The notes: a model not told the origin generated them from the sequence alone. Positions 2 through 18,011 are shown, counted from the first letter of the stretch. The stretch: 64,000 bases of DNA from Candidatus Rifleibacteriota bacterium (GCA_018818125.1 JAHISQ010000120.1:4658-68657); one strand, 5' to 3'. A program made the numbers and translations.

Positions 2-970
2 CAGGTCGTTGAAGCATCTGATCTCAGCCGTTATGCGCCAGAGAAGAGACACATTCACCTTGGCAGCGGAATCGATTATTTCGATGTCGAAAACTATGTG
101 AACAGTGGCCGCGCCAGTTCTGGCGAATGGCAGCCATATTGCAGTCATTCGCATCTTGAAGTCCTGAAAATGGCTGAAAAATATGAACTCAGAGGCGGTC
201 AGTCCGCTAATGTCGCCGCCTGCGTTGCATCGACCCAGGCCATAGGCCTCGGATTCAGAATCGTGCGTTCTGATCCTGCAACGATGGTTATCAGCGGCGG
301 TTATGATTCGATGCTGTGTCATCTTCACTATCTCGGCTTCTATAAACTTGGAGCTCTGTCAGACTGGCCCGGAGACCCGTCACAGGCTTGTAGGCCTTTT
401 GATAAAAACCGGCGCGGTCTTGTTCTTGGCGAGGGTGCGGTTTCGTTTCTTCTCGAAAGCGGCAATAACGCCGCCCGTGAACGCATTCTCGGCGAAATAT
501 GTGGTTACAGTTCTACAATGGATGCCTATCTGGTTACCGACCCGGATCCGGGCGGTGAACAACTGGCGCGCGCGGCACTTGAAGCCATAGGCGAGGCCGG
601 GATTACTCCGGACCAGATCGACTGCGTTCATCTGCACGGAACCGGAACCCACAAAAATGCACCGGCTGAAGCAAATGCCATGAAGCGCATTTTTTCTGAC
701 AGATACAAAGAGATACCTGTATATTCAATGAAGGGGCAGATAGGTCATCTGATCGGCGCCTGTGGTGCCATGGAACTTCTTGCGGTTATCTGGTCTTTAA
801 CAAAAGGGCAGGTTCCCGTAACTGTAAATTATGACGAACCTGATCCCGAGGTAGGGCTTAATGTTGTCAGGGGCAAGCCGCTTGATCTTGAGATAAAATA
901 TGTTCTCAAACTCAATGCCGCATTTGGCGGGCAGAATACAGCTATAGTAATGAGGCGTTTCGATGCGTAA
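2..970 (+). CDS. Beta-ketoacyl-ACP synthase (FabF/KAS II-like), 5'-partial
   Basis: Frame is open from base 2 (QVVEASDLSRY...). Cys-His-His triad motifs are intact: AACVAS, HLHGTGT, KGQIGHLIGACG; C-terminal NAAFGGQN. Confidence 0.92.
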   Translation, partial: QVVEASDLSRYAPEKRHIHLGSGIDYFDVENYVNSGRASSGEWQPYCSHSHLEVLKMAEKYELRGGQSANVAACVASTQAIGLGFRIVRSDPATMVISGGYDSMLCHLHYLGFYKLGALSDWPGDPSQACRPFDKNRRGLVLGEGAVSFLLESGNNAARERILGEICGYSSTMDAYLVTDPDPGGEQLARAALEAIGEAGITPDQIDCVHLHGTGTHKNAPAEANAMKRIFSDRYKEIPVYSMKGQIGHLIGACGAMELLAVIWSLTKGQVPVTVNYDEPDPEVGLNVVRGKPLDLEIKYVLKLNAAFGGQNTAIVMRRFDA

Positions 971-1682
971 AATTGTCGTAACCGGTGCAAGTTCCGAAAT
1001 TGGCGCGGCAATATGCCGTAAAATAGCTCAGCCGGATGATGAAATGGTCATACATGGTTTCAGGCACCATGAGGCTCTTGAACAGCTCAAGACCGAATTG
1101 GAATGCCGGGAAACTGTTATCGCATCAGGTGATCTTGCCGATTCCGGCTTTTTATCAGAATTTGTCAAGACTGCCAAAGACTGTGACATTCTTGTGAACT
1201 GCGCTGCCGCAACAATTTCTGCTCCACTTGCCCAATTGACCGACGATGAGGTTGACCTGATGCTTGCAGTGAACCTGGTTGCCATGATCAGGCTTTGCCG
1301 TGAGGTGGTTCCCGGAATGCTGGCCAGAAGAAGCGGTTCTATTCTTAATATTTCTTCTGTGGCGGCATCCCGTGGCGTGCGCGGTCAGACCGTTTATGCC
1401 GGCACCAAAGGCTTTATTGAGTCATTCACCCGTTCCCTGGCCGCCGAGTGCGGAAGAAAAGGGGTTAGAGTTAACTGCATCGCACCCGGGCCAATAGAGG
1501 CCGGCAGCCTGAAGAGTTTACTCAGTTACACAGGTGATGAGGTCAAAAAGAACGTCGCTCTCAACCGTCTGGGTTTGCCTGCCGAAATCGCGAATGTCGC
1601 AGCCTTTCTCCTCAGCGAGAACGCATCATTCATCGTCGGTGAGGTCGTTCACGTGAACGGAGGCTTCATGTATGGATTGTGA
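963..1682 (+). CDS. SDR, 3-oxoacyl-ACP reductase (FabG-like)
   Basis: TGASSEIG nucleotide-binding loop, NISSVAA, YAGTK catalytic motif, VNCIAPG; overlaps the KAS stop. Confidence 0.9.
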   Translation: MRKIVVTGASSEIGAAICRKIAQPDDEMVIHGFRHHEALEQLKTELECRETVIASGDLADSGFLSEFVKTAKDCDILVNCAAATISAPLAQLTDDEVDLMLAVNLVAMIRLCREVVPGMLARRSGSILNISSVAASRGVRGQTVYAGTKGFIESFTRSLAAECGRKGVRVNCIAPGPIEAGSLKSLLSYTGDEVKKNVALNRLGLPAEIANVAAFLLSENASFIVGEVVHVNGGFMYGL

Positions 1683-2268
1683 TTTTGCCAGCTATGAGGC
1701 GCTCAAGAGCATTGCGCAGGCACGCAAAAGCTGCAGAACATTTTCCTCAAGGCCGCTCGACGATGATATTTTACAAAAAGTTCTCGACGTTGCCATGCTT
1801 TCTCCTTATGCTTCCGGCCGTAAGAACTGGACTGTCAGAATTATCAAAGACGGCGAAACCATTTTAAACGCTGCCGAGCTTGTTCAGGCACATTGCAAAG
1901 TCCTGTCAGCAGACGTCAGAGAAGATATGAGAGATTCTTTTGAAGCTTATGCAGAAAATTTTGTCGCATTCAAGACGGCCCCGGTTCTGCTGGTTACCGA
2001 GTTCAGGGTCATGCCGGCGCTTTCTCTAATGCTGGGAGGCAGTGAAGAGGTCGGTCGTTGGGAGAGAGAGAACTTTATCAAGTCGATTTCGTGCGTCAGT
2101 ATGCTGATTCTGCTTGCCGCCGAGTCGTTGAATCTTGGGGCTTGTTGCATGACCGGCCCTCTGCTGGCTCATGACGGGCTTGCCCGCTTGTTTAAGATTA
2201 AAGAGTCCAGAGAAATCGGAGCTATAATAGCGCTCGGATACAAATCACAGGAGATAAACAATGGTTGA
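1672..2268 (+). CDS. Nitroreductase-family flavoprotein
   Basis: RKSCRTFSSRP, LSPYASGRKNW, LAAESLNLGACCM, IALGY motifs typical of the FMN nitroreductase fold. Confidence 0.85.
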   Translation: MDCDFASYEALKSIAQARKSCRTFSSRPLDDDILQKVLDVAMLSPYASGRKNWTVRIIKDGETILNAAELVQAHCKVLSADVREDMRDSFEAYAENFVAFKTAPVLLVTEFRVMPALSLMLGGSEEVGRWERENFIKSISCVSMLILLAAESLNLGACCMTGPLLAHDGLARLFKIKESREIGAIIALGYKSQEINNG

Positions 2269-2635
2269 ACAGAAACTGCGAGAGCTGCTGCTGCCGGTGC
2301 TTGATATCGATTCAATCGATGAGATCAGTCCTGATGCATCGCTGGTTAGCGACCTTGGCGCCGACAGCATCGATTTTGTCGAGATCATCTATCTTGTTGA
2401 AAAAAACTTTGGTGTTGTGCTTAAAACCAGCCAGATCATCGTAGCCGGAACCAATCCTGATGAGCTGTTTGAAGATGAAAGATTGACGGCGGCCGGAGCC
2501 GATATCGTTTCGCGTAACCTGGGTGCCGACAGCGGAAGATACCGTGAAGGCATGACAAAGATAGAACTTTTTCGGGTCCTGTCGGTGAGAGATCTCGCCA
2601 GGGTCATTGAACTTAAAATGTCAGAAAAGGCTTGA
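2261..2635 (+). CDS. Acyl carrier protein, long form (124 aa)
   Basis: DLGADSIDFVEI phosphopantetheine-Ser motif, acidic composition, located within the KAS/FabG operon. Confidence 0.9.
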   Translation: MVEQKLRELLLPVLDIDSIDEISPDASLVSDLGADSIDFVEIIYLVEKNFGVVLKTSQIIVAGTNPDELFEDERLTAAGADIVSRNLGADSGRYREGMTKIELFRVLSVRDLARVIELKMSEKA

Positions 2636-2636
2636 T

Positions 2637-3359
2637 ATGCTAAACGGAAAAACTGTTTTTATCACCGGTGGAACCGGATACATCGGAAGCGAGCTCGTCA
2701 GAGTCTTTGCCGGTTACGGCGCGCATGTCATCTTTTCTTACAATCGTAGTGCTGATAAAGCAGAAAAGCTGAAAAGCGAAGTTGCCTCATGCGAATCAGT
2801 CAAAATGAACATGTCTGATGTCAAAGAAATAACTGCAGTGATTGAGCAGATCTACAAAGATCACGAAAAGATCGATATCCTGGTTAACAACGCTGCGATA
2901 AGCCAGATCATGCCTCTGGCCATGCTTGATGAAGAAGACGTTGACGCCGTTCTCGCCATAAACATGAAAGGCCTGATTTTTGTAACCAAAGCTGTTGTTC
3001 GCGGCATGATCCGCAACAAGGCTGGCGTCATCATAAACATGGGCTCTATCGCTGGTCAGCGCATTCTCGATGTGCCACTGACCTACGCAATGACCAAAGC
3101 CGCGGTAAATGGAATGACATACTCGCTTGCTGCAGAGTTAAAGCGGTTCAATATTCGCGTAAACTCGGTGATTCCAGGTCTGCTGGCCGGAGGTGTCGCC
3201 AGAGGCGTGCCCGATGACCTGCGTGATGATTTCGTCAAGCACTGTGCCGCCGGTCGAGCCGGCACTGCTGCTGATATTGCCGAATTGACCGCGTTTCTTG
3301 CTTCCGATAAAGCCTCGTATATCAACGGGCAGAACATCGCTTCTGACGGAGGAATCTAG
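2637..3359 (+). CDS. Second SDR, 3-oxoacyl-ACP reductase (FabG-like)
   Basis: ATG at 2637 directly after the ACP stop; TGGTGYIG, LVNNAA, NMGSIA, YAMTK, VNSVIPG. Confidence 0.9.
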   Translation: MLNGKTVFITGGTGYIGSELVRVFAGYGAHVIFSYNRSADKAEKLKSEVASCESVKMNMSDVKEITAVIEQIYKDHEKIDILVNNAAISQIMPLAMLDEEDVDAVLAINMKGLIFVTKAVVRGMIRNKAGVIINMGSIAGQRILDVPLTYAMTKAAVNGMTYSLAAELKRFNIRVNSVIPGLLAGGVARGVPDDLRDDFVKHCAAGRAGTAADIAELTAFLASDKASYINGQNIASDGGI

Positions 3360-3363
3360 GCTG

Positions 3364-4758
3364 ATGGGTGATACTCTGATCCGATCGACAAGTGCCTGGT
3401 GCAACGTCTGCGAGCAGGTCGAGCATGCCGCGATTGTTGAACGCAAAGGCTCGGTATACATGGAGCGGTTCTGCTCCAAGGGCGTGCAATCAGAGATAAT
3501 TGCCGAAAGCTATGCCTGGTATGCCGAAAGAATCAATCAGCCGCATGTTGCGACTACCGTGGCCGAGCCCGTTGCCTGCCGCCAAGGCTGTCCGCTTGAT
3601 TGCGGCCCCTGTGAATGGCACAGTAACGGTTTGAGACTGCCGGTTTTTTCGATTACCAACGACTGCAATCTTGATTGCCCCAAGTGTTTCACTTTTAACC
3701 GCCCTGATCAGCGCTATTATAAATCAGTCGAAGAAACCCGCGCGATTATTCGCGGTATCACTAAGGCTTCGGGCGGGGTTCAGCTGATAAATCTTACCGG
3801 CGGCGAGCCGACGCTGCATCCTGAGCTGTTCGAAATCATCGAAGCCTGTAAAGATGCGAAGATAAAGCGCATAACGATGAATACAAACGGCATCAGAATC
3901 GCCCAGGATTTTGAGTTTGCCCAAAAAATCAAGCAGTCGGGAGTTCAGCTGGTTTTAAATCTCGACACTCTTAACCCCGAAACCAGCGTTCTGATGTATG
4001 GCAAGGACATCACGGATCTCAAATTGCAGGCTCTGGCGACAATCGAACGACTCGAAATTCCGACGACAATTCTTCTTGTCGCTGCGCTCGGAGTTAACGA
4101 AAAAGAGGTCGCGCAGCTCACGCGTGCCTGGATCGGCAAAAGTTTTGTCAGAAGCATTACGATTCAGAACATGACATTTACCGGGAAAAATGGTGCCGCT
4201 TTTGAGCCGAAAAGACGCCTGCCGATCGATCAGATGGAGCGCCTTCTTTGCGAAGAGGAAGGCTTCGACACTAATGATTTTTTTCCGCTCGGGTCTTATC
4301 ATCCGCTTTGTTACAGTGTTGCCTACTATGTGTTTTATGACGGTCAATTGATCTCTCTGGCGAAAGTATTCGACCGCAAGCGACTGTCTGAGCTAACTGC
4401 AGGCAACTATCTGCTCGAACCGGATCGACGCTTCTCGATGGATTTTATTGAGGGACTGAACCGGATGTGGGCTGAAAATGTTGATGAGTCTCTTATTTTG
4501 CATTTTAAGAGATTGTTACGGGAAGTATATTCGGGCGATCACCCTGAGGATGACGAAGACAGGCGAAAACAGCTCGAAAGCATGGTGAAGATGGTTTACA
4601 TTCACCCTCACATGGATGCTGACAACTTTGATCTCGACAGGATCTCGCGCTGTGGCGACCTGGTTCCTGACGAAGAGGGCAATATGATACCCGCGTGTTC
4701 CTACAATCTGCTTTATCGACAGAAAGATCCGCGATTCTGGGTGGACAGTGATGAATAA
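3364..4758 (+). CDS. Radical SAM protein, Tes/GDGT-MAS (MJ0619)-like, paralog A with degenerate auxiliary motifs
   Basis: ATG at 3364; N-terminal CNVC, GCPLDCGPCEWH, CNLDCPKC (CxxxCxxC at 3664-3687), TGGEP, TNG, C-terminal HMD-x12-C...IPACSYN. Confidence 0.85.
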   Translation: MGDTLIRSTSAWCNVCEQVEHAAIVERKGSVYMERFCSKGVQSEIIAESYAWYAERINQPHVATTVAEPVACRQGCPLDCGPCEWHSNGLRLPVFSITNDCNLDCPKCFTFNRPDQRYYKSVEETRAIIRGITKASGGVQLINLTGGEPTLHPELFEIIEACKDAKIKRITMNTNGIRIAQDFEFAQKIKQSGVQLVLNLDTLNPETSVLMYGKDITDLKLQALATIERLEIPTTILLVAALGVNEKEVAQLTRAWIGKSFVRSITIQNMTFTGKNGAAFEPKRRLPIDQMERLLCEEEGFDTNDFFPLGSYHPLCYSVAYYVFYDGQLISLAKVFDRKRLSELTAGNYLLEPDRRFSMDFIEGLNRMWAENVDESLILHFKRLLREVYSGDHPEDDEDRRKQLESMVKMVYIHPHMDADNFDLDRISRCGDLVPDEEGNMIPACSYNLLYRQKDPRFWVDSDE

Positions 4759-6148
4759 AGCCGAAAGCAAACTGATTTATTCGCAGACCATGGCTCTTTG
4801 CCCGAAGTGTATGAGCAAGGTTCGGGCAAGAATAATCGAAGTCGACAGCAAGGTTTTTCTTGAGAAGTTCTGCCCTGAACATGGCTTTTCAAGAGTTCTT
4901 ATCTCTTCGGATCCCGAGTGGTATCGCGCCAGCATGGCTTACATAAAGCCCTCACAGAATCCAAAAGAAAGAAACGTTGAAAAATTTGTCGGTTGCCCGC
5001 AAAGCTGCGGACTGTGCCCCGAACACCGTCAGCATGTTTGCCTGCCGATAATTGAGATTACCGACAGGTGTGATCTGTCATGCCCGGTTTGCCTGAAAAA
5101 ATTCGATCGCGCGTTTTCATTGTCTGTTGATCAGTTCGCCGGGATTATCGACAACCTGATGAGAACAGAAGGGCGGATGGATGTTGTTAACATCAGCGGT
5201 GGTGAGCCTCTGCTTCACCCCGATCTGGAGCAGATGATAAGGCTTGCCAGGGAAAAAGGCGTCTCTCAGGTGTCAGTTTCAACAAACGGTCTCGCTTTTC
5301 TAGATAATCCGGCTTTAAGACAAATGTTTCGCGAGACGCGATCCATAGCTGCGCTGCAGTTCGATGGCTTCAAGCCTGAAACCTGGAAATTCATAAGAGG
5401 CGTCGATCTTGCCGCGAAAAAACAGGAAATCATAAGGGTTCTCGAAGCTGAGGGAATTACCTATTCGCTGGTATCTACGATATTGAAAGGTGTTAATGAC
5501 GACGAAATCGCGGCAATCAGAGATTTTTTCTTTGCATCGCAAGCCGTCTCATTGATGTTTCAGCCGGTTACATTTTCGGGCAGCGCAGCAAGTCTGGATG
5601 CTGAGCGGCACCGTCTGACCATTCCCGATGTCGTGCAGGCAATTGAGGGCGGCAGACATGTTAAAAAAGGCGATTTCAATCCTCTTCCATGTTCGCATTA
5701 TTCATGTTTTGCGCTGTCATATTATTTGAAGGTTGAAGATGGAGACTATTACAGCCTGAAAGAGTTTTTAGGCCGCGATGATTACCTTGCGATGATTGCG
5801 AACAAAACCCTGCCCGGGCTCGATAGCAATGGTTATGACATGATGAAAAACCGCCTGTACAAGCTGTGGTCAGCGGCCGATTCAAGCACCGCTTCGACTA
5901 AATTGCTCAATCGCGTTAAAGCAATTCTGAAAAAGCTCAACCAGGATTCTTCGACTGATGCCAGAATTAATGCTGGTATTGAGAATATGAAGGCTATTTT
6001 TATTCATCACTTCATGGATGTACATACTCTCGATTTTGGCCGATTGATCAAGTGCTGCAACCCTTATCCGATGCCGGGTGACCGTCTTGTGCCGATGTGT
6101 GCGCAGAATGTTTTCGGCTCTTATCAGGAGTCAGGGAAGAAATCTTGA
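4748..6148 (+). CDS. Radical SAM protein, Tes/GDGT-MAS (MJ0619)-like, paralog B with a full motif set
   Basis: CPKC...CPEHG, GCPQSCGLCPEH, CDLSCPVC (5069-5092), SGGEP, LQFDG, GVND, FQPVTFSG, HFMD-x12-CCNPY...VPMC. Confidence 0.88.
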   Translation: MMNKAESKLIYSQTMALCPKCMSKVRARIIEVDSKVFLEKFCPEHGFSRVLISSDPEWYRASMAYIKPSQNPKERNVEKFVGCPQSCGLCPEHRQHVCLPIIEITDRCDLSCPVCLKKFDRAFSLSVDQFAGIIDNLMRTEGRMDVVNISGGEPLLHPDLEQMIRLAREKGVSQVSVSTNGLAFLDNPALRQMFRETRSIAALQFDGFKPETWKFIRGVDLAAKKQEIIRVLEAEGITYSLVSTILKGVNDDEIAAIRDFFFASQAVSLMFQPVTFSGSAASLDAERHRLTIPDVVQAIEGGRHVKKGDFNPLPCSHYSCFALSYYLKVEDGDYYSLKEFLGRDDYLAMIANKTLPGLDSNGYDMMKNRLYKLWSAADSSTASTKLLNRVKAILKKLNQDSSTDARINAGIENMKAIFIHHFMDVHTLDFGRLIKCCNPYPMPGDRLVPMCAQNVFGSYQESGKKS

Positions 6149-7438
6149 GCGGCGGTAATTCCAGCCAATCGAAGCAAGAAAACTCATCAGCTCGATTGAG
6201 CCGGCAAACCTCGGGTAGACCTTCCAGTTTCTCAGCATGCTGCGATTATGGTAGAGCCGGTCCAGCCTTTTATATAGTTTGACAACACCGTCTTCAAGCT
6301 GTTTTTCAGTCATCTGTTTCGGTTTTATGACAACGTGATCCCAGTCAAAATCTGACCAGTCATTGCCTGTTATACGGTTTTCAGCCCTGGTCTGTTCGAG
6401 ATATGGGGTTTCGGGATATGGCGTCAAAAAATAGAACGTGTATGAGTCCAGGCCCAGTGTGCGAATCAGCTCCTCGGTTTCTCTGAATACGCTCGGAGCA
6501 TCGCTGTCGAAGCCAAAAATAAAGGTTCCGTCGACGAGAATTCGGTGCTTGTGCAGCAGATCAACAAGTGTTTTATAGCGATCGGCACGGTTTTGAAATA
6601 TTCTTTCGGCCTGGTTGGTCTCATCGCTGCCAGTCTGAAAGCCGATACTCACCGAAAAACAGCCTGAGCGTGCCATCATTTCGATCAGTTCCTCGTCGTC
6701 AAAAATGTTAGAAGGCGCCTGTATCCACCAGTGTTTTTTCAGCTTTGTGATTTCTGACAGCATCGACATCATATAGTCGCGATTACAAAACATGTTGTCA
6801 TCACAAAACAGAACGATATTCGCCGATAAGGCCTGCAACTCATTGTAAACGTCGCTGATATCCTTATACACCAGTCCCTTTTTTGGCATACAGTTCAGGT
6901 AACAAAAACGACAGCTGTTAAGGCATCCTCTGGTTGTTTCGCAGTATGCCAGGGTGTCGTTGCGTGACCTGAAGAGATCCCGGCGCGGACTGGCCAGTTT
7001 TATGCCGGTCCAGTTCGAATCGTAGCGATTTTTAAGGTTGCCGGCGGCAAAATCCTCAAGTAGTTTTGGCCAGGTGTCTTCGGCATAGCCAATAACAATG
7101 CTGTCAGCGTGCTTCGAGCATTCAGTCGGTGTTAACCCGACGTGAACTCCGCCCATGACGACTTTGATGCCTTGCGCTCTCAGCCGGTCTGCAAGTTTGA
7201 AAGCCTGGGGCGCAACATAAGTGTTTACCGAGATTCCCACAAGGTCATACTTTGAGAGATCAGCAGGAACTGGCTCCATCGCTTCATCAATGATTGTGAC
7301 CCGGTGCGGTGCACTGCAGGCGGCTACAACCCCAAGTGTCAGCGGATGAATGAGGTTTTCATCGACCTTGATTTTTCTACGATAGCCATGACTTTTCCAG
7401 CGTGGCTGCACAAGCAGGATATCAAGCAACCTTGTCAC
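6131..7438 (-). CDS. B12-binding-domain radical SAM protein (class B-type architecture)
   Basis: N-terminal cobalamin-binding fold (DLVGIS...VVMGGVH...ADSIVIGYAE), TTRGCLNSCRFC, FCDDN, FIFGFD, LTPYPETP. Confidence 0.9.
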   Translation of the reverse strand: MTRLLDILLVQPRWKSHGYRRKIKVDENLIHPLTLGVVAACSAPHRVTIIDEAMEPVPADLSKYDLVGISVNTYVAPQAFKLADRLRAQGIKVVMGGVHVGLTPTECSKHADSIVIGYAEDTWPKLLEDFAAGNLKNRYDSNWTGIKLASPRRDLFRSRNDTLAYCETTRGCLNSCRFCYLNCMPKKGLVYKDISDVYNELQALSANIVLFCDDNMFCNRDYMMSMLSEITKLKKHWWIQAPSNIFDDEELIEMMARSGCFSVSIGFQTGSDETNQAERIFQNRADRYKTLVDLLHKHRILVDGTFIFGFDSDAPSVFRETEELIRTLGLDSYTFYFLTPYPETPYLEQTRAENRITGNDWSDFDWDHVVIKPKQMTEKQLEDGVVKLYKRLDRLYHNRSMLRNWKVYPRFAGSIELMSFLASIGWNYRRSRFLP

Positions 7439-8112
7439 TTTACACCTGTCATGACATCGATTGAGCCCTTCCAGCGGTCAGTTACCCGAAACTGCGAAAA
7501 ACCGGCGGATTCAAAAAGCCTGGGAACAATACCGTCAAAGTTAGCCGGGGCATTAGCACCGATTTCTGGGATAGCTCTGCCCCAGACTTTTTTGGTATAG
7601 AGTGCCAGAAGATTTCCGATGATTCCGGAAGGTTTGCCGAATTCGGCCATAACAGCCTTTCCGCCGGGCTTGAGCACTCGAAATATCTCATTAAACAAAA
7701 CCTGCTTGCCCTCAACCGGGATCTGGTGGGTAACGAGCGATGAAACAAAGATATCAACGGATTCCGACTTTACCGGAAAATTTGGGAAAAGGGGAATCTG
7801 CACAAAACACTTGCCCTGGTGATCGATTGTCTTGCCATTTGCAATTTTAAGCATACCGGCTCCGGGATCAATACCGAGATAAAGACCGTTATACTGATAA
7901 TTGGTCTTGATAAACTCTAGAAGTAGACCTGTCCCGCAGCCGAAATCAAGAATTGTCGAGTTCTTGAAATCGCCGAAATTGTTGACTATTGACCGCCGAA
8001 AAGCGTTGTAAGAGCCTAGCCAGTGCAATTTCATACCGGTATCGTAAGCGCCGGCATTATCTTCATGTTTCATTATCTGTTTCGCTTTGATAAAATTATA
8101 GAAAATTCTCAT
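7435..8112 (-). CDS. Class I SAM-dependent methyltransferase (UbiE-like)
   Basis: ILDFGCGTG, GIDPGAGML, EIFRVLKPGG; 4-nt overlap with the B12-radical SAM start. Confidence 0.88.
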   Translation of the reverse strand: MRIFYNFIKAKQIMKHEDNAGAYDTGMKLHWLGSYNAFRRSIVNNFGDFKNSTILDFGCGTGLLLEFIKTNYQYNGLYLGIDPGAGMLKIANGKTIDHQGKCFVQIPLFPNFPVKSESVDIFVSSLVTHQIPVEGKQVLFNEIFRVLKPGGKAVMAEFGKPSGIIGNLLALYTKKVWGRAIPEIGANAPANFDGIVPRLFESAGFSQFRVTDRWKGSIDVMTGVK

Positions 8113-8210
8113 CGATAGTGTATCATTCTGCAGTTGGTCTGTAAACCCGATGGTCGCTATGACTGACAGAGTGTAAGAATACTATTAGTTGAAATCCGGA
8201 TGAATTTACC

Positions 8211-9209
8211 GTGAAAATTACTGCATTTATAAGACTGATGAGTCTGGTTTTGTGTCTCAGATCTGTTGGAATCCCGGATTCTGCTGCAGAGACATGTAGC
8301 ATTCTTGAAAAAAGAGACCTCGTTGCACCGTCTGGCGGTCATTACCACCTGTTTATGCCAGTTTCCCCGGCTGGCATCACCGTAATTGCAGCGCATGGCG
8401 TCACGCTCGATGGCTATAATGACTTTAGAGTCGTTCAGTTTGCCCGTGCGCTGGCCGGTTCCGGGGTGGTCTGTGTACTTCCAGACCTGCATCACATCGC
8501 TAACGGTAGTTTTAATACGAAAGATCTCGATCTGATCAGTGAGTTGATTTGTGAGTATGAGCAAAACAAGGCACGGCGCCTCGGTCTGGTTGGCTTCAGT
8601 TATGCCGCAAGTTACGTGCTGACCGCTGCGGCCAGTGAAGAGTCAGCTGCAAAAGTTTCTTCTGTTACAACATTTGGAGCATGCTATTCAATTTCCGAAT
8701 CATTCAAAATCAGCGAATCGTTCAAAGCTCTGCCGGAAACTGATCTCGAGTGGGATAAATACATTCATTTTGCTTTAATGGGGATTCATCGATTCTACAG
8801 GGAAATGGGTATACCTTCACATATTGCAGGTGAATGCGAGGATCTGCTGAGAGACTACTGCAGTCTTTATTCGATTGAGTTCAAGCGCCAGTTTTACCAA
8901 AGCAGGCTTGCGAGCTATGAACCGCTAGAATTCTACCGCACGCAAGTTATGCACGATTCGCTTGACAAGCTGTCGCCGAAAGGCAAACTTGCCGGCATAA
9001 AATGCAAAGTATCATTGATTCATGGTGTCGACGATCACATGATTCCAGCACATGAATCTCGAAGAATCCATGCTGAGCTGAGTATGGCACAACGTCCGGT
9101 CGACTCTCGCCTTCTCGTCACCAGTCTTCTCGGGCATGTTCATCCCGGTCAGATCAAACTGTTTGAGCTGCTGCAGTTTGTGAAGTCTCTTCGGCTGATT
9201 TTTGATTAA
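8211..9209 (+). CDS. Secreted alpha/beta-hydrolase-fold protein
   Basis: Signal-peptide-like N-terminus, AHG, nucleophile elbow GFSYA, LIHGVDD, late His (LLGH). Confidence 0.75.
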   Translation: MKITAFIRLMSLVLCLRSVGIPDSAAETCSILEKRDLVAPSGGHYHLFMPVSPAGITVIAAHGVTLDGYNDFRVVQFARALAGSGVVCVLPDLHHIANGSFNTKDLDLISELICEYEQNKARRLGLVGFSYAASYVLTAAASEESAAKVSSVTTFGACYSISESFKISESFKALPETDLEWDKYIHFALMGIHRFYREMGIPSHIAGECEDLLRDYCSLYSIEFKRQFYQSRLASYEPLEFYRTQVMHDSLDKLSPKGKLAGIKCKVSLIHGVDDHMIPAHESRRIHAELSMAQRPVDSRLLVTSLLGHVHPGQIKLFELLQFVKSLRLIFD

Positions 9210-15749: not shown

Positions 15750-17027
15750 ATGAACGAAAGAAAGCTTATAGTCGTTGCGGTTATCGCCTATCTTGCACTG
15801 GTTTTTGTCTGCTGGGATGACTCGATCACCAGCAGCCCCGATGGTCGCAAAATTCTTACTTTCTGGCATACCTACAACGACCAGGAAGAGCAGGTTCTGC
15901 GCAGTATAATCAAAGACTGGGAAACCGCCAACGCGAGTTTTACTATTCGCCCGGTTCGCATACCCTTCGATGGCCACAAAGCCAAGCTCAGAACCGCTTT
16001 GACTGTTGGACAGGGCCCAGATATGGCTCGTGTCGACTGGTCTTTTGTCTGCGAACTTGCTCGTAAAAATTCAGTAATCGACCTCGAAACCCTCGGCTTC
16101 GAAAAGATTCGAGATCAGTATTTGCCGGCTCCGCTTAAAAGCGCCTTTATTGACGGAAAATACTACGGAATCCCGGATCAGAGCACCTGTGTGGCGATGT
16201 TCTACAATCGTCAGATGTTCAAAGCTGCTGGCCTGATCGGACCTGCCGAAGAAGACCAGAATAAAGTCGAAGAAGTAGTATTGCCAAAGACCTGGGAAGA
16301 ATTCATTGAAGTCGGCAAAAAGCTCACTGATAAATCAAAAGATCAGTATGCCTTTGCCATGACCAATACCCTCTGGTGGAATCTGCCATTTTTCAACAGT
16401 TATGGTGCCCGCATCGTTTCTGAAGACGGCAAAAAGTGCGTCCTCGACTCAGACTCGGCAGTGCAGGCCCTCGAAATGATGGCCTCGCTGGTCAATGAGC
16501 ACAAAATCGAAGCTGGCGCGTGGCGGCCGGGTGCAATTTCCCCGGAACAGGGCTTTGTTAACGGCAAATATGCGATGGTTTTTATGGGTCCCTGGAACCT
16601 TGCCAAATTCGCTACCGCTAAAATGGATTTCGGCGTCGGGTTGATCCCTGGCGGAACTGCTGGCACCTCGACCAACGTTGGCGGAACTGATGTCGTAATT
16701 TTCAAGGGCACCAATTATGCGGCCGAGTGCTACGATTTTTTGACATTTTTTACCAGTGCCGAGAACCAGAAAACGTGGTGTACTGAGCTCAATCAGTTGC
16801 CTATCAATCTTGGCGCTTACGATCTTGTCAGCTTCGATGATCCCAACCTGAGGGTGTTCATGGAACAGATGAAGCACGCCGGCCCCAACCCGGTAGTCAA
16901 AGACTACGCTTTGCTCGAAGATCTTATTAACCCCGAAGTTGAAGCGGTGCTCTCAGGCCAGAAAACTGCGCGCGAAGCACTCACTACTGCTGCAAAGAAG
17001 GTTCAAGAGCGTCTGATCGACTTGTGA
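15750..17027 (+). CDS. Carbohydrate ABC transporter substrate-binding protein
   Basis: LTFWHT, GPDMARVD, YGIP...MFYNRQMF, PKTWEEF, GKYAMVFMGPW. Confidence 0.92.
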   Translation: MNERKLIVVAVIAYLALVFVCWDDSITSSPDGRKILTFWHTYNDQEEQVLRSIIKDWETANASFTIRPVRIPFDGHKAKLRTALTVGQGPDMARVDWSFVCELARKNSVIDLETLGFEKIRDQYLPAPLKSAFIDGKYYGIPDQSTCVAMFYNRQMFKAAGLIGPAEEDQNKVEEVVLPKTWEEFIEVGKKLTDKSKDQYAFAMTNTLWWNLPFFNSYGARIVSEDGKKCVLDSDSAVQALEMMASLVNEHKIEAGAWRPGAISPEQGFVNGKYAMVFMGPWNLAKFATAKMDFGVGLIPGGTAGTSTNVGGTDVVIFKGTNYAAECYDFLTFFTSAENQKTWCTELNQLPINLGAYDLVSFDDPNLRVFMEQMKHAGPNPVVKDYALLEDLINPEVEAVLSGQKTAREALTTAAKKVQERLIDL

Positions 17028-17129
17028 ACTAAATATTGAAAACTGTTTTTTTGTTGAAAGCCGTATCAAATGGCAGACTCTGGTAGCCATTTGCTGAATA
17101 CTTTTTTCAGCATAGTCAGGTAAAAACTT

Positions 17130-18011
17130 GTGGACATTAAAACGCTTTTTATATGCAATGCGTCCATAGTTCTTTTTATGGCTTCGGCTTTTTTGTTTTA
17201 CAGGGTCAACTATAAAACTTATCCGGGCTATGGAAGCTGGCTTTGTTCTCTTTTTGCCATGGCGATCGGTTATTGTTCAATCATTTTTCGTGAAACAATG
17301 CCTACTGCATTAGGTATTGGATTGACGAATGTCGCGTTTATTTCTGTTGGAGTTTTTCGCCTGGATGCCGTCAAGAGATTTACGCAGGGGCAAGAACTTA
17401 AAAAAGTGTATTATCTTCTCCCCGTTGCGGTGCTTCCATTCGCAATGTATTTTTATCTTGTCAAAGATGCCATAATCATTCGCACCTTCTTTACAAGCTT
17501 GTTTCTGGCATTACCGGCTTTACTCATCAGTGCAGAACTCTATAAAAACAGAAACAGAGAAAATAGTAATCTCTTCTTGGCCATTGCTGGATTAAATGCA
17601 TTCAATGTTTTGCTCCTTATGCTTCGTGCAATCATCGGGCTTTCAAGCACAAATGCCACTTTGTTTTCAAGCGAAAAAATTCACCAGATTTATTTTCTGG
17701 CAGTAATTGTTATAGAGGTTGGAGTCGGAATTGCCTGGTTGATGATGAACAACCAGCGCCTTGAAGTAGAGTTGCGAGCATCACGGGACAGTCTGCAAAC
17801 AACAAATACTGAGCTTGAAAAGGCGCTGTCAGAGGTTAAGGCGTTGAGCGGAATAATTCCGATATGTATGCATTGCAAAGAAATCAGAGACGATAAGGGT
17901 TACTGGAATCAGCTTGAAACATTCATTTCAAGACATTCCGAGGCTAAATTCAATCATAGTATCTGCCCGAGATGTCTGAAAGAAAAATATCCGGATTTGG
18001 ATGATGACTGA
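17130..18011 (+). CDS. Multi-TM membrane sensor with coiled coil and C-terminal Cys/His module
   Basis: About seven hydrophobic helices, coiled coil, then IPICMHCKEIRDDKGYW...HSICPRC. Confidence 0.8.
   Translation: MDIKTLFICNASIVLFMASAFLFYRVNYKTYPGYGSWLCSLFAMAIGYCSIIFRETMPTALGIGLTNVAFISVGVFRLDAVKRFTQGQELKKVYYLLPVAVLPFAMYFYLVKDAIIIRTFFTSLFLALPALLISAELYKNRNRENSNLFLAIAGLNAFNVLLLMLRAIIGLSSTNATLFSSEKIHQIYFLAVIVIEVGVGIAWLMMNNQRLEVELRASRDSLQTTNTELEKALSEVKALSGIIPICMHCKEIRDDKGYWNQLETFISRHSEAKFNHSICPRCLKEKYPDLDDD

Follow-up and report, generated by a model that had tools for sequence, protein, structure and literature searches.

A pair of overlapping genes on the minus strand of a 64,000-nucleotide stretch of DNA from Candidatus Rifleibacteriota bacterium (GCA_018818125.1 JAHISQ010000120.1:4658-68657; the whole stretch is called the window below) encodes a class I S-adenosylmethionine (SAM)-dependent methyltransferase (MTase) and a radical SAM enzyme with a B12-binding domain (B12-rSAM). 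With a probability of about 0.7, this pair is an optional late tailoring module of a widespread orphan gene cluster, in which a KAS/FabG/FabZ/acyl carrier protein (ACP)/nitroreductase set is joined by radical SAM proteins resembling tetraether synthase (Tes-like) and by a sulfur relay. Judged from gene content and sequence, both genes of the module are intact, their translation is coupled, and they are passed on along with the cluster. By analogy with characterised enzymes, their reaction may be taken as a radical modification, probably a C-methylation that depends on cobalamin, together with the methylation of a heteroatom, which may be sulfur. The module is an orphan tailoring arm and no new kind of system.

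Candidate producers of the membrane-spanning and branched lipids that serve as environmental proxies are the bacterial homologues of archaeal tetraether synthase, of whose accessory enzymes little is known. The B12-rSAM clade described here, and the small MTase family that follows it, are dedicated add-ons of one Tes-like cluster, tied to its sulfur relay. The two-gene module therefore offers a testable handle on the cluster product and a genomic marker for a tailored variant of it. A full-text literature search found no paper describing a KAS/ACP/Tes-like/rhodanese cluster; the clade-specific association, the nested pattern of occurrence and the sulfur-relay link are new here.

Association of the gene pair with the Tes-like cluster

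The B12-rSAM gene (6131–7438, minus strand), a member of a clade tied to the lipid cluster, is an intact open reading frame (ORF) of 435 amino acids (aa) with a GTG start. The MTase gene (7435–8112, minus strand) is likewise an intact ORF of 225 aa, with a likely coding sequence of 7435–8073 (212 aa from Met14) and an alternative start at 8112; the start at 8073 is the more probable because the database homologues are all 212–221 aa long and begin near Met14. The two genes share a GTGA start/stop overlap (7435–7438, minus strand), in which the GTG start of the B12-rSAM gene lies on the MTase stop, an arrangement indicative of translational coupling. The junction is ATGA in congeners, and MTase stop and B12-rSAM start also abut on two metagenome contigs (L104 and L105). 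At its 3′ end, the B12-rSAM gene runs convergently into Tes-like paralog B with an overlap of 18 nt on both strands (6131–6148), its stop codon being located at 6131–6133 and that of paralog B at 6146–6148. The same overlap measures 18 nt in four congeneric loci (L023, L024, L026, L027) and 16 nt in a fifth (L025), and one Verrucomicrobia cluster has an overlap of this type of 17 nt. An initial annotation, made from the sequence of the window, had described both the minus-strand pair and the 18-nt overlap. The pair was confirmed by its ORFs, domains, motifs and GTGA coupling, and the overlap by the positions of both stop codons. The arrangement, called head-on there, is convergent: the genes stand tail-to-tail and are not head-on in the 5′ sense.

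Co-occurrence across genomes had been put forward in the same annotation as a check, and this was carried out as a synteny survey in which all cluster proteins were compared by tblastn with 80 genome loci and then with further loci. A B12-rSAM orthologue was regarded as cluster-associated when it was located within ~12 kb of Tes-like, ACP, FabG and rhodanese genes. Every B12-rSAM of at least 44% identity with enough flanking sequence was found beside the same gene set, with the exception of two loci (L021 and L022). Among the Pirellulales and other Planctomycetota (L028, L020, L116), the genes are co-directional in the order FabA, KAS, nitroreductase, ACP, FabG, FabA, TesA, TesB, rhodanese and B12-rSAM. 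Three loci of the Verrucomicrobiota (L018/L030, L033, L035) also have the B12-rSAM gene beside the cluster. An unclassified metagenome-assembled genome ("bacterium MF1", L032) carries TesA, a hexapeptide protein, two small radical SAM proteins, TesB, NifS-rhodanese, MTase and B12-rSAM, and the B12-rSAM gene adjoins the cluster on metagenome contigs L103, L104 and L105. In Wallbacteria (L013/L014), it keeps the strand of the cluster and follows 12 kb downstream. Contigs L104 and L105 share the convergent layout of the window, with the MTase and then the B12-rSAM gene facing a Tes-like gene. Most other lineages are co-directional (TesB, rhodanese with or without NifS, MTase where present, B12-rSAM). 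The 18-nt overlap with paralog B would most simply reflect the packing of genes once the module had been inverted.

In a maximum-likelihood tree built from 84 homologues, every cluster-associated protein fell within one well-supported clade (99/91), in which 17 of the 19 rows are cluster-associated, as is the pair of the window, against none of the 64 rows outside it. The check thus showed the orthologue clade to be bound to the cluster in several phyla. For the nearest outlier of the clade (L034), the genome carries Tes-like genes on other contigs. The sister clade comprises 38 rows, with a Kuenenia homologue (42% identity) that has no cluster genes nearby. Tree and synteny together show that this B12-rSAM clade is confined almost entirely to the cluster or its immediate neighbourhood, in at least four phyla. 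At both sister-clade loci that were inspected (L114:4782-7296 and L115:4892-7293), away from lipid genes, a gene for a radical SAM-SPASM protein overlaps and precedes the B12-rSAM gene.

Within the genus, 5 genomes combine the Tes-like pair with the B12-rSAM and the MTase in one and the same layout, and 10 genomes lack every one of these genes. Among the 87 genomes of the phylum, a TesB homologue occurs together with a B12-rSAM orthologue in 7 and alone in 15; 64 genomes have neither, and 1 has a B12-rSAM homologue only. The homologue of this last genome (G034, 43% identity) belongs to the sister clade and does not count as an orthologue. The co-occurrence gave a Fisher p of 2e-4 with G034 counted as B12-rSAM-only, a value to be read with relatedness in mind, as the genomes are not phylogenetically independent and a single inherited block accounts for six of the seven. 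It could be argued that the pair is an unrelated operon merely abutting the lipid cluster, as it lies on the opposite strand, many Tes-like clusters are found without it and two orthologues are located elsewhere. This is considered very improbable, given that the clade-specific adjacency recurs in several phyla with varied gene orders, in co-directional operons and with a domain fusion.

Optional occurrence and the sulfur relay

Five Tes-like clusters of the same phylum (L106–L109, L111) come from genomes with no B12-rSAM orthologue anywhere, and these clusters are also without rhodanese domains. Where a B12-rSAM cluster has the relevant flank covered, it is always accompanied by rhodanese domains that retain the catalytic Cys; loci that are short or cut off, L031 and L105 among them, do not enter this count. 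The MTase was found only where the B12-rSAM occurs, with one genome (G018) excepted, and the B12-rSAM occurs without the MTase in clusters of Planctomycetota and Verrucomicrobiota. As far as gene content goes, occurrence therefore looks nested, from the Tes core to the rhodanese, then the B12-rSAM and then the MTase, and this nesting is what successive optional tailoring steps would produce. Absence of the module from homologous clusters had been named in the initial annotation as telling against a role in the cluster. Such absence is widespread (15 of the 22 genomes of the phylum with TesB, and the clusters L106–L111 and L117–L119), and the dependence runs in one direction: the module is hardly ever seen apart from the cluster, so that it is to be regarded as optional and not as unrelated, and this one-way dependence favours an accessory role.

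The MTase family is small, with 19 proteins of 212–221 aa each in a large collection. On the informative contigs (those of Riflebacteria, L031, L032, L103, L104 and L105), its members lie directly upstream of a B12-rSAM orthologue. The MTase gene of contig L103 and the NifS-rhodanese gene before it overlap, and in Wallbacteria (L013:11662-13875; G028:C59) a 737-aa fusion of Aminotran_5, rhodanese and a C-terminal MTase directly follows TesB. As a Rosetta-stone protein, this fusion ties the MTase to the sulfur relay. The family occurs almost only beside this B12-rSAM, or fused or coupled to the NifS-rhodanese of the cluster. Two conserved small ORFs (144 and 160 aa) without a Pfam match precede the MTase gene on contigs L104 and L105.

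The proposal of a tailoring arm for the Tes-like cluster, made in the initial annotation, thus stands as regards membership, through the clade, the adjacency and the fusion. The link to the cysteine desulfurase and rhodanese sulfur relay had been missed there, and it is the strongest clue available. As the module travels with sulfur-delivery genes, the product is probably a methylated and perhaps a sulfur-bearing lipid. A bolder and rather unlikely reading takes the nested occurrence and the NifS-rhodanese-MTase fusion as signs of a stepwise, sulfur-dependent branch of the pathway. Sulfane sulfur would first go onto an unactivated carbon of an ACP- or membrane-bound chain, and the action of B12-rSAM and MTase at this site would then yield a methylthio or a branched alkylthio group; the lipids so formed, methyl-branched and sulfur-bearing, would be an undescribed class in uncultured anaerobes of groundwater and sediment.

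In clusters of Planctomycetota and Verrucomicrobia (L020:8621-9958 and L018:13376-14665), the rhodanese forms the N-terminal domain of a protein of ~430–445 aa. Its remaining ~300 residues look hydrophobic, which hints at membrane-located sulfur transfer. A 444-aa upstream ORF of the contig that carries the window was considered as the membrane part of the Planctomycetota protein and was rejected, as no similarity was found; it is a secreted HExxH protein, and its place is probably outside the cluster. The idea that the Planctomycetota rhodanese-membrane protein contains the MTase was rejected on the same ground.

Protein families, folds and the proposed reaction

The B12-rSAM consists of an N-terminal Rossmann-like B12-binding domain, for which PF02310 scored 37.7 bits (cut-off 32.1), and a radical SAM core with a partial TIM barrel (PF04055, 54.5 bits). 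The iron-sulfur cluster motif is CLNSCRFC (C172-x3-C176-x2-C179), with C172-LNS-C176-RF-C179 invariant in 27 homologues. Its AlphaFold model (pLDDT, a per-residue confidence score, of 89.5) has AprD4 as its nearest solved fold (TM score 0.74), followed by MgmA, TsrM, MiaB, CysS, TokK and OxsB, at 12–18% identity; PDB searches by sequence and by fold returned no specific functional neighbour. CysS (9N1B), TokK (7KDY), MgmA (9CCB) and TsrM (6WTE) have the same succession of an N-terminal Rossmann-like B12 domain and a radical SAM barrel (Foldseek E 1e-13 to 1e-18, TM 0.61–0.69, 15–16% identity). CysS and TokK act on carrier- or pantetheine-bound substrates, and they differ from the 435-aa B12-rSAM in their extra C-terminal domains.

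In NCBIfam, the highest score was against BchE (68.8, cut-off 481), followed by HpnJ (61.7, cut-off 577.6), PhpK (61, cut-off 600), the ladderane-type family TIGR04072 (50.3, cut-off 360), MgmA (47.3, cut-off 360), HpnR (40.8, cut-off 650), AprD4 (NF033070; 37.5, cut-off 500) and MiaB/RimO (TIGR00089; 35.6, cut-off 251). HpnP was absent among the NCBIfam matches listed. The ladderane type, HpnR and HpnJ resemble the present protein in being B12-domain radical SAM enzymes embedded in lipid gene clusters, whereas the scores rule out membership. The comparison with HpnR and with ladderane clusters drawn in the initial annotation does not, therefore, amount to family membership, nor does BchE offer one. 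The MiaB/RimO proteins have in common with the B12-rSAM a three-layer N-terminal domain, a radical SAM barrel and a functional link to sulfur. A role as a MiaB/RimO methylthiotransferase was rejected because Cys107 is the only invariant Cys of the N-terminal domain, so that the three-Cys auxiliary-cluster motif is missing, and because there is no TRAM domain.

The MTase matched Pfam Methyltransf_25/11 (~55 bits), Methyltransf_12 and Ubie_methyltran above their cut-offs. It carries the SAM-binding motif DFGCGTG, for which LDFGCGTG is nearly invariant in the family, and it matched the class I Rossmann fold. The structural neighbours of its model (pLDDT 91) are generic class I enzymes only, and sequence and fold searches of the PDB gave no specific functional neighbour. 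The NCBIfam scores were 60.8 for CpaM (cut-off 180), 59.9 for UbiE (216), 54.9 for UbiE/MenG (158), 38.3 for ArsM (263) and 37 for BioC (185). No ArsM-like cysteines are present, the sole invariant Cys being that in motif I.

It is proposed that the private KAS/FabG/FabZ/ACP/nitroreductase set would build a chain on which one or two Tes-like radical SAM enzymes would act. The B12-rSAM would abstract hydrogen from an unactivated carbon of this carrier-bound or lipid-bound chain and would then most likely transfer a methyl group from methylcobalamin, as in class B radical SAM chemistry. From the class I MTase, a heteroatom would receive another methyl group, this one polar, and sulfur from the NifS-rhodanese relay is the most plausible acceptor. 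The expected product would be a methyl-branched and possibly methylthio-bearing lipid.

The closest parallel in gene arrangement is provided by Gms and Gmm, which modify archaeal GMGT lipids and are encoded by overlapping genes for a C-C bond-forming radical SAM enzyme and a B12-rSAM methylase, Gmm methylating the lipids cross-linked by Gms (Garcia et al., 2024; PMC11214058). Bacterial Gms homologues cluster with tes genes (Garcia et al., 2024; PMC11214058). The likeness, compared by gene arrangement and not by sequence, lies in the clustering of a C-C bond-forming radical SAM lipid enzyme with a B12-rSAM, and the overlapping radical SAM-SPASM and B12-rSAM unit of the sister clade is a further point of resemblance. 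In contrast to Gms/Gmm, the partners here are Tes-like and come with a private ACP chain, a sulfur relay and a class I MTase, which Gms/Gmm lacks. When an archaeal homologue was used as the search query toward Gmm, the best 120 matches listed were all bacterial.

Several observations weigh against the proposed tailoring role and its methylating chemistry. Both proteins scored below the cut-off of every NCBIfam family against which they were scored, with matches in NCBIfam and Pfam at superfamily level only, and so substrate and reaction are assigned by analogy. The co-occurrence in Riflebacteria is largely a single inherited block. No cluster gene lies near the orthologues in L021 and L022, and the MTase homologue of G018 (45% identity) occurs by itself in an unrelated context. 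Clusters L117–L119 have a rhodanese and no B12-rSAM, from which it follows that the rhodanese does not need the B12-rSAM. Sequencing runs of RNA across the convergent overlap were sought, and the runs containing the region were groundwater DNA metagenomes only. AprD4, which comes closest among the solved structures, is a dehydratase that works without B12, and Cys260, which is invariant like Cys107 among the homologues aligned, is placed in the barrel where it would suit the hydrogen-atom donor of a non-methylating reaction. Finally, CobS, CbiB and a cobalamin riboswitch were not found in the genome to which the window belongs (G000, 94.6% complete).

The last of these points can also be read in favour of a B12-rSAM that does not methylate, carrying out instead an AprD4-like dehydration, a Grs/BchE-like ring closure, an epimerisation or the formation of a C-S bond by way of a rhodanese persulfide, maybe without cobalamin, so that the MTase would be the sole methyl donor. 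AprD4 (6FD2), a diol dehydratase similar in length to the B12-rSAM, ranks first in the PDB both by sequence profile (E = 7e-17) and by fold; it does without cobalamin and acts on an aminoglycoside. The two cysteines that are invariant beyond those of the SAM cluster, the confinement of the B12-rSAM to clusters with a rhodanese, and the placement of the Wallbacteria gene in an operon with a BadF/BcrA-type ATPase would also fit. Against this, the identity to AprD4 is just 18% and the NF033070 score is far from its cut-off. PF02310 was matched above its gathering score, and characterised enzymes of this domain architecture are mostly cobalamin-dependent methylases. Moreover, the organism does use B12. 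Overall, a non-methylating enzyme is a real possibility and clearly the less likely one.

The use of cobalamin by the organism is deduced from an MCM-type mutase (C14:9354-10910) and a MetH-type B12 protein (C187:6738-6953) encoded in G000. With CobS, CbiB and the riboswitch missing, the cofactor would have to be imported, and G000 is probably a B12 auxotroph or importer with an unrecognised control of uptake. Cobalamin use by the B12-rSAM is, on this gene content, plausible. G000 also encodes four close B12-domain radical SAM paralogues in addition to weaker radical SAM matches. It should also be noted that at least six paralogous B12-domain radical SAM genes are located outside the window, within ~28 kb at G000:C122:52113-80370, with 27–36% identity to the product of 6131–7438, and that similar tandem arrays of 4–7 copies occur in Oscillospiraceae and other Clostridia, Anaerolineales and bacterium UASB14 (L073–L092).

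For the MTase, three further assignments were weighed. In the CysQ/CysS pathway, methylation by CysQ is followed by alkyl extension by CysS. A comparable sequence here would have the MTase make an S- or O-methyl group which the B12-rSAM extends to an ethyl or branched alkyl group. The coupling and adjacency of the two genes in at least six lineages would agree with this, as would the position of CysS, with its pantetheinylated substrate, among the closest solved folds. The clusters of Planctomycetota and Verrucomicrobiota that keep a B12-rSAM without an MTase speak against it, because in these the B12-rSAM substrate cannot depend on the MTase (unless it has been replaced), and sequential alkylation is considered unlikely.

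Slightly less probable again is a role at the start of the pathway, with the MTase as a BioC-like malonyl-ACP O-methyltransferase disguising the primer and with the product of the divergent alpha/beta-hydrolase gene (8211–9209) as the BioH-like esterase. The weak similarity to BioC (TIGR02072, E = 3e-9), the hydrolase gene adjoining the MTase in all Riflebacteria loci and the cluster's own KAS, FabG, FabZ and ACP led to this suggestion. The BioC score, however, is only 37 against a cut-off of 185, and the MTase and hydrolase do not co-vary, for which reason the idea was rejected: the MTase occurs without the hydrolase in L032, L103, L104, L105 and Wallbacteria, the hydrolase without the MTase in L117, and the MTase instead tracks the B12-rSAM and NifS-rhodanese.

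Methylation of the corrinoid for the B12-rSAM, and not of the lipid, was considered because CpaM is the top NCBIfam match of the MTase (E = 1e-16) and the MTase is almost never seen without the B12-rSAM. This is improbable as well, since the score is far under its cut-off and about level with that for UbiE, many clusters have the B12-rSAM without the MTase, and the NifS-rhodanese fusion points elsewhere. The known class B enzymes use SAM to methylate the cobalamin that they carry.

Host cluster and neighbouring genes

The plus-strand operon that ends at 6148 begins upstream of the window on the same contig, in the order NifS-rhodanese fusion, FabZ-like, 196-aa ORF, KAS, FabG-like, nitroreductase, long ACP, FabG-like, Tes-like A and Tes-like B. 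The first three of these, with no family match for the 196-aa ORF, are located upstream of the window at C28:1783-5627. The chain-building set spans 2–3359 of the window, all on the plus strand, with the 3′ part of KAS from position 2, a FabG-like reductase (963–1682), a nitroreductase (1672–2268), the long ACP (2261–2635) and a second FabG-like reductase (2607–3359). These are followed by the genes for Tes-like radical SAM paralogs A (3298–4758) and B (4748–6148), also on the plus strand. Paralog B, the last gene of the operon, contains Zn_ribbon_HMPTM and Radical_SAM domains and scored 272 against TrsS (cut-off 490) and 268 against Tes (cut-off 450) in NCBIfam, both under the cut-off; TrsS is the top NCBIfam match of the Tes-like genes.

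The alpha/beta-hydrolase-fold protein on the other side of the pair (8211–9209, plus strand) has a weak Abhydrolase_6 match, and its gene is kept beside the MTase in all Riflebacteria loci. A full-length homologue (30% identity) was found at L117:13956-14948, beside a third Tes-like gene in a cluster without a B12-rSAM. The hydrolase is probably a further accessory member of the cluster in its own right. The divergent intergenic region between the MTase and hydrolase genes (8113–8210) contains one promoter-like site on the minus strand (8145–8117). The promoter-like sites detected in the promoter scan are matches to the consensus only, and their count was not above that in shuffled sequence. 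Terminator-like hairpins were not enriched either, with 2 found against 2.4 expected from shuffled sequence. A genomic island was considered on GC content and rejected, the shift being small (0.489 against 0.445).

The clusters on contigs L104 and L105 are the ones most like that of the Rifleibacterium (TesB 55%, FabA 53–64%), with one Tes-like gene only. Genes for ankyrin-repeat proteins are found among their biosynthetic genes (L104:7775-8749; L105:14112-15221 and 16324-17298). In a Verrucomicrobia cluster (L018:16193-16974), a PIN-domain gene and a small partner ORF lie between the two Tes-like genes in a toxin-antitoxin-like arrangement. The Wallbacteria B12-rSAM orthologue (L014:2360-6718) is preceded by a 383-aa ORF, with which it overlaps, and comes after genes for a DUF2229 protein and a BadF/BcrA-type ATPase, neighbours which suggest an ATP-driven supply of low-potential electrons.

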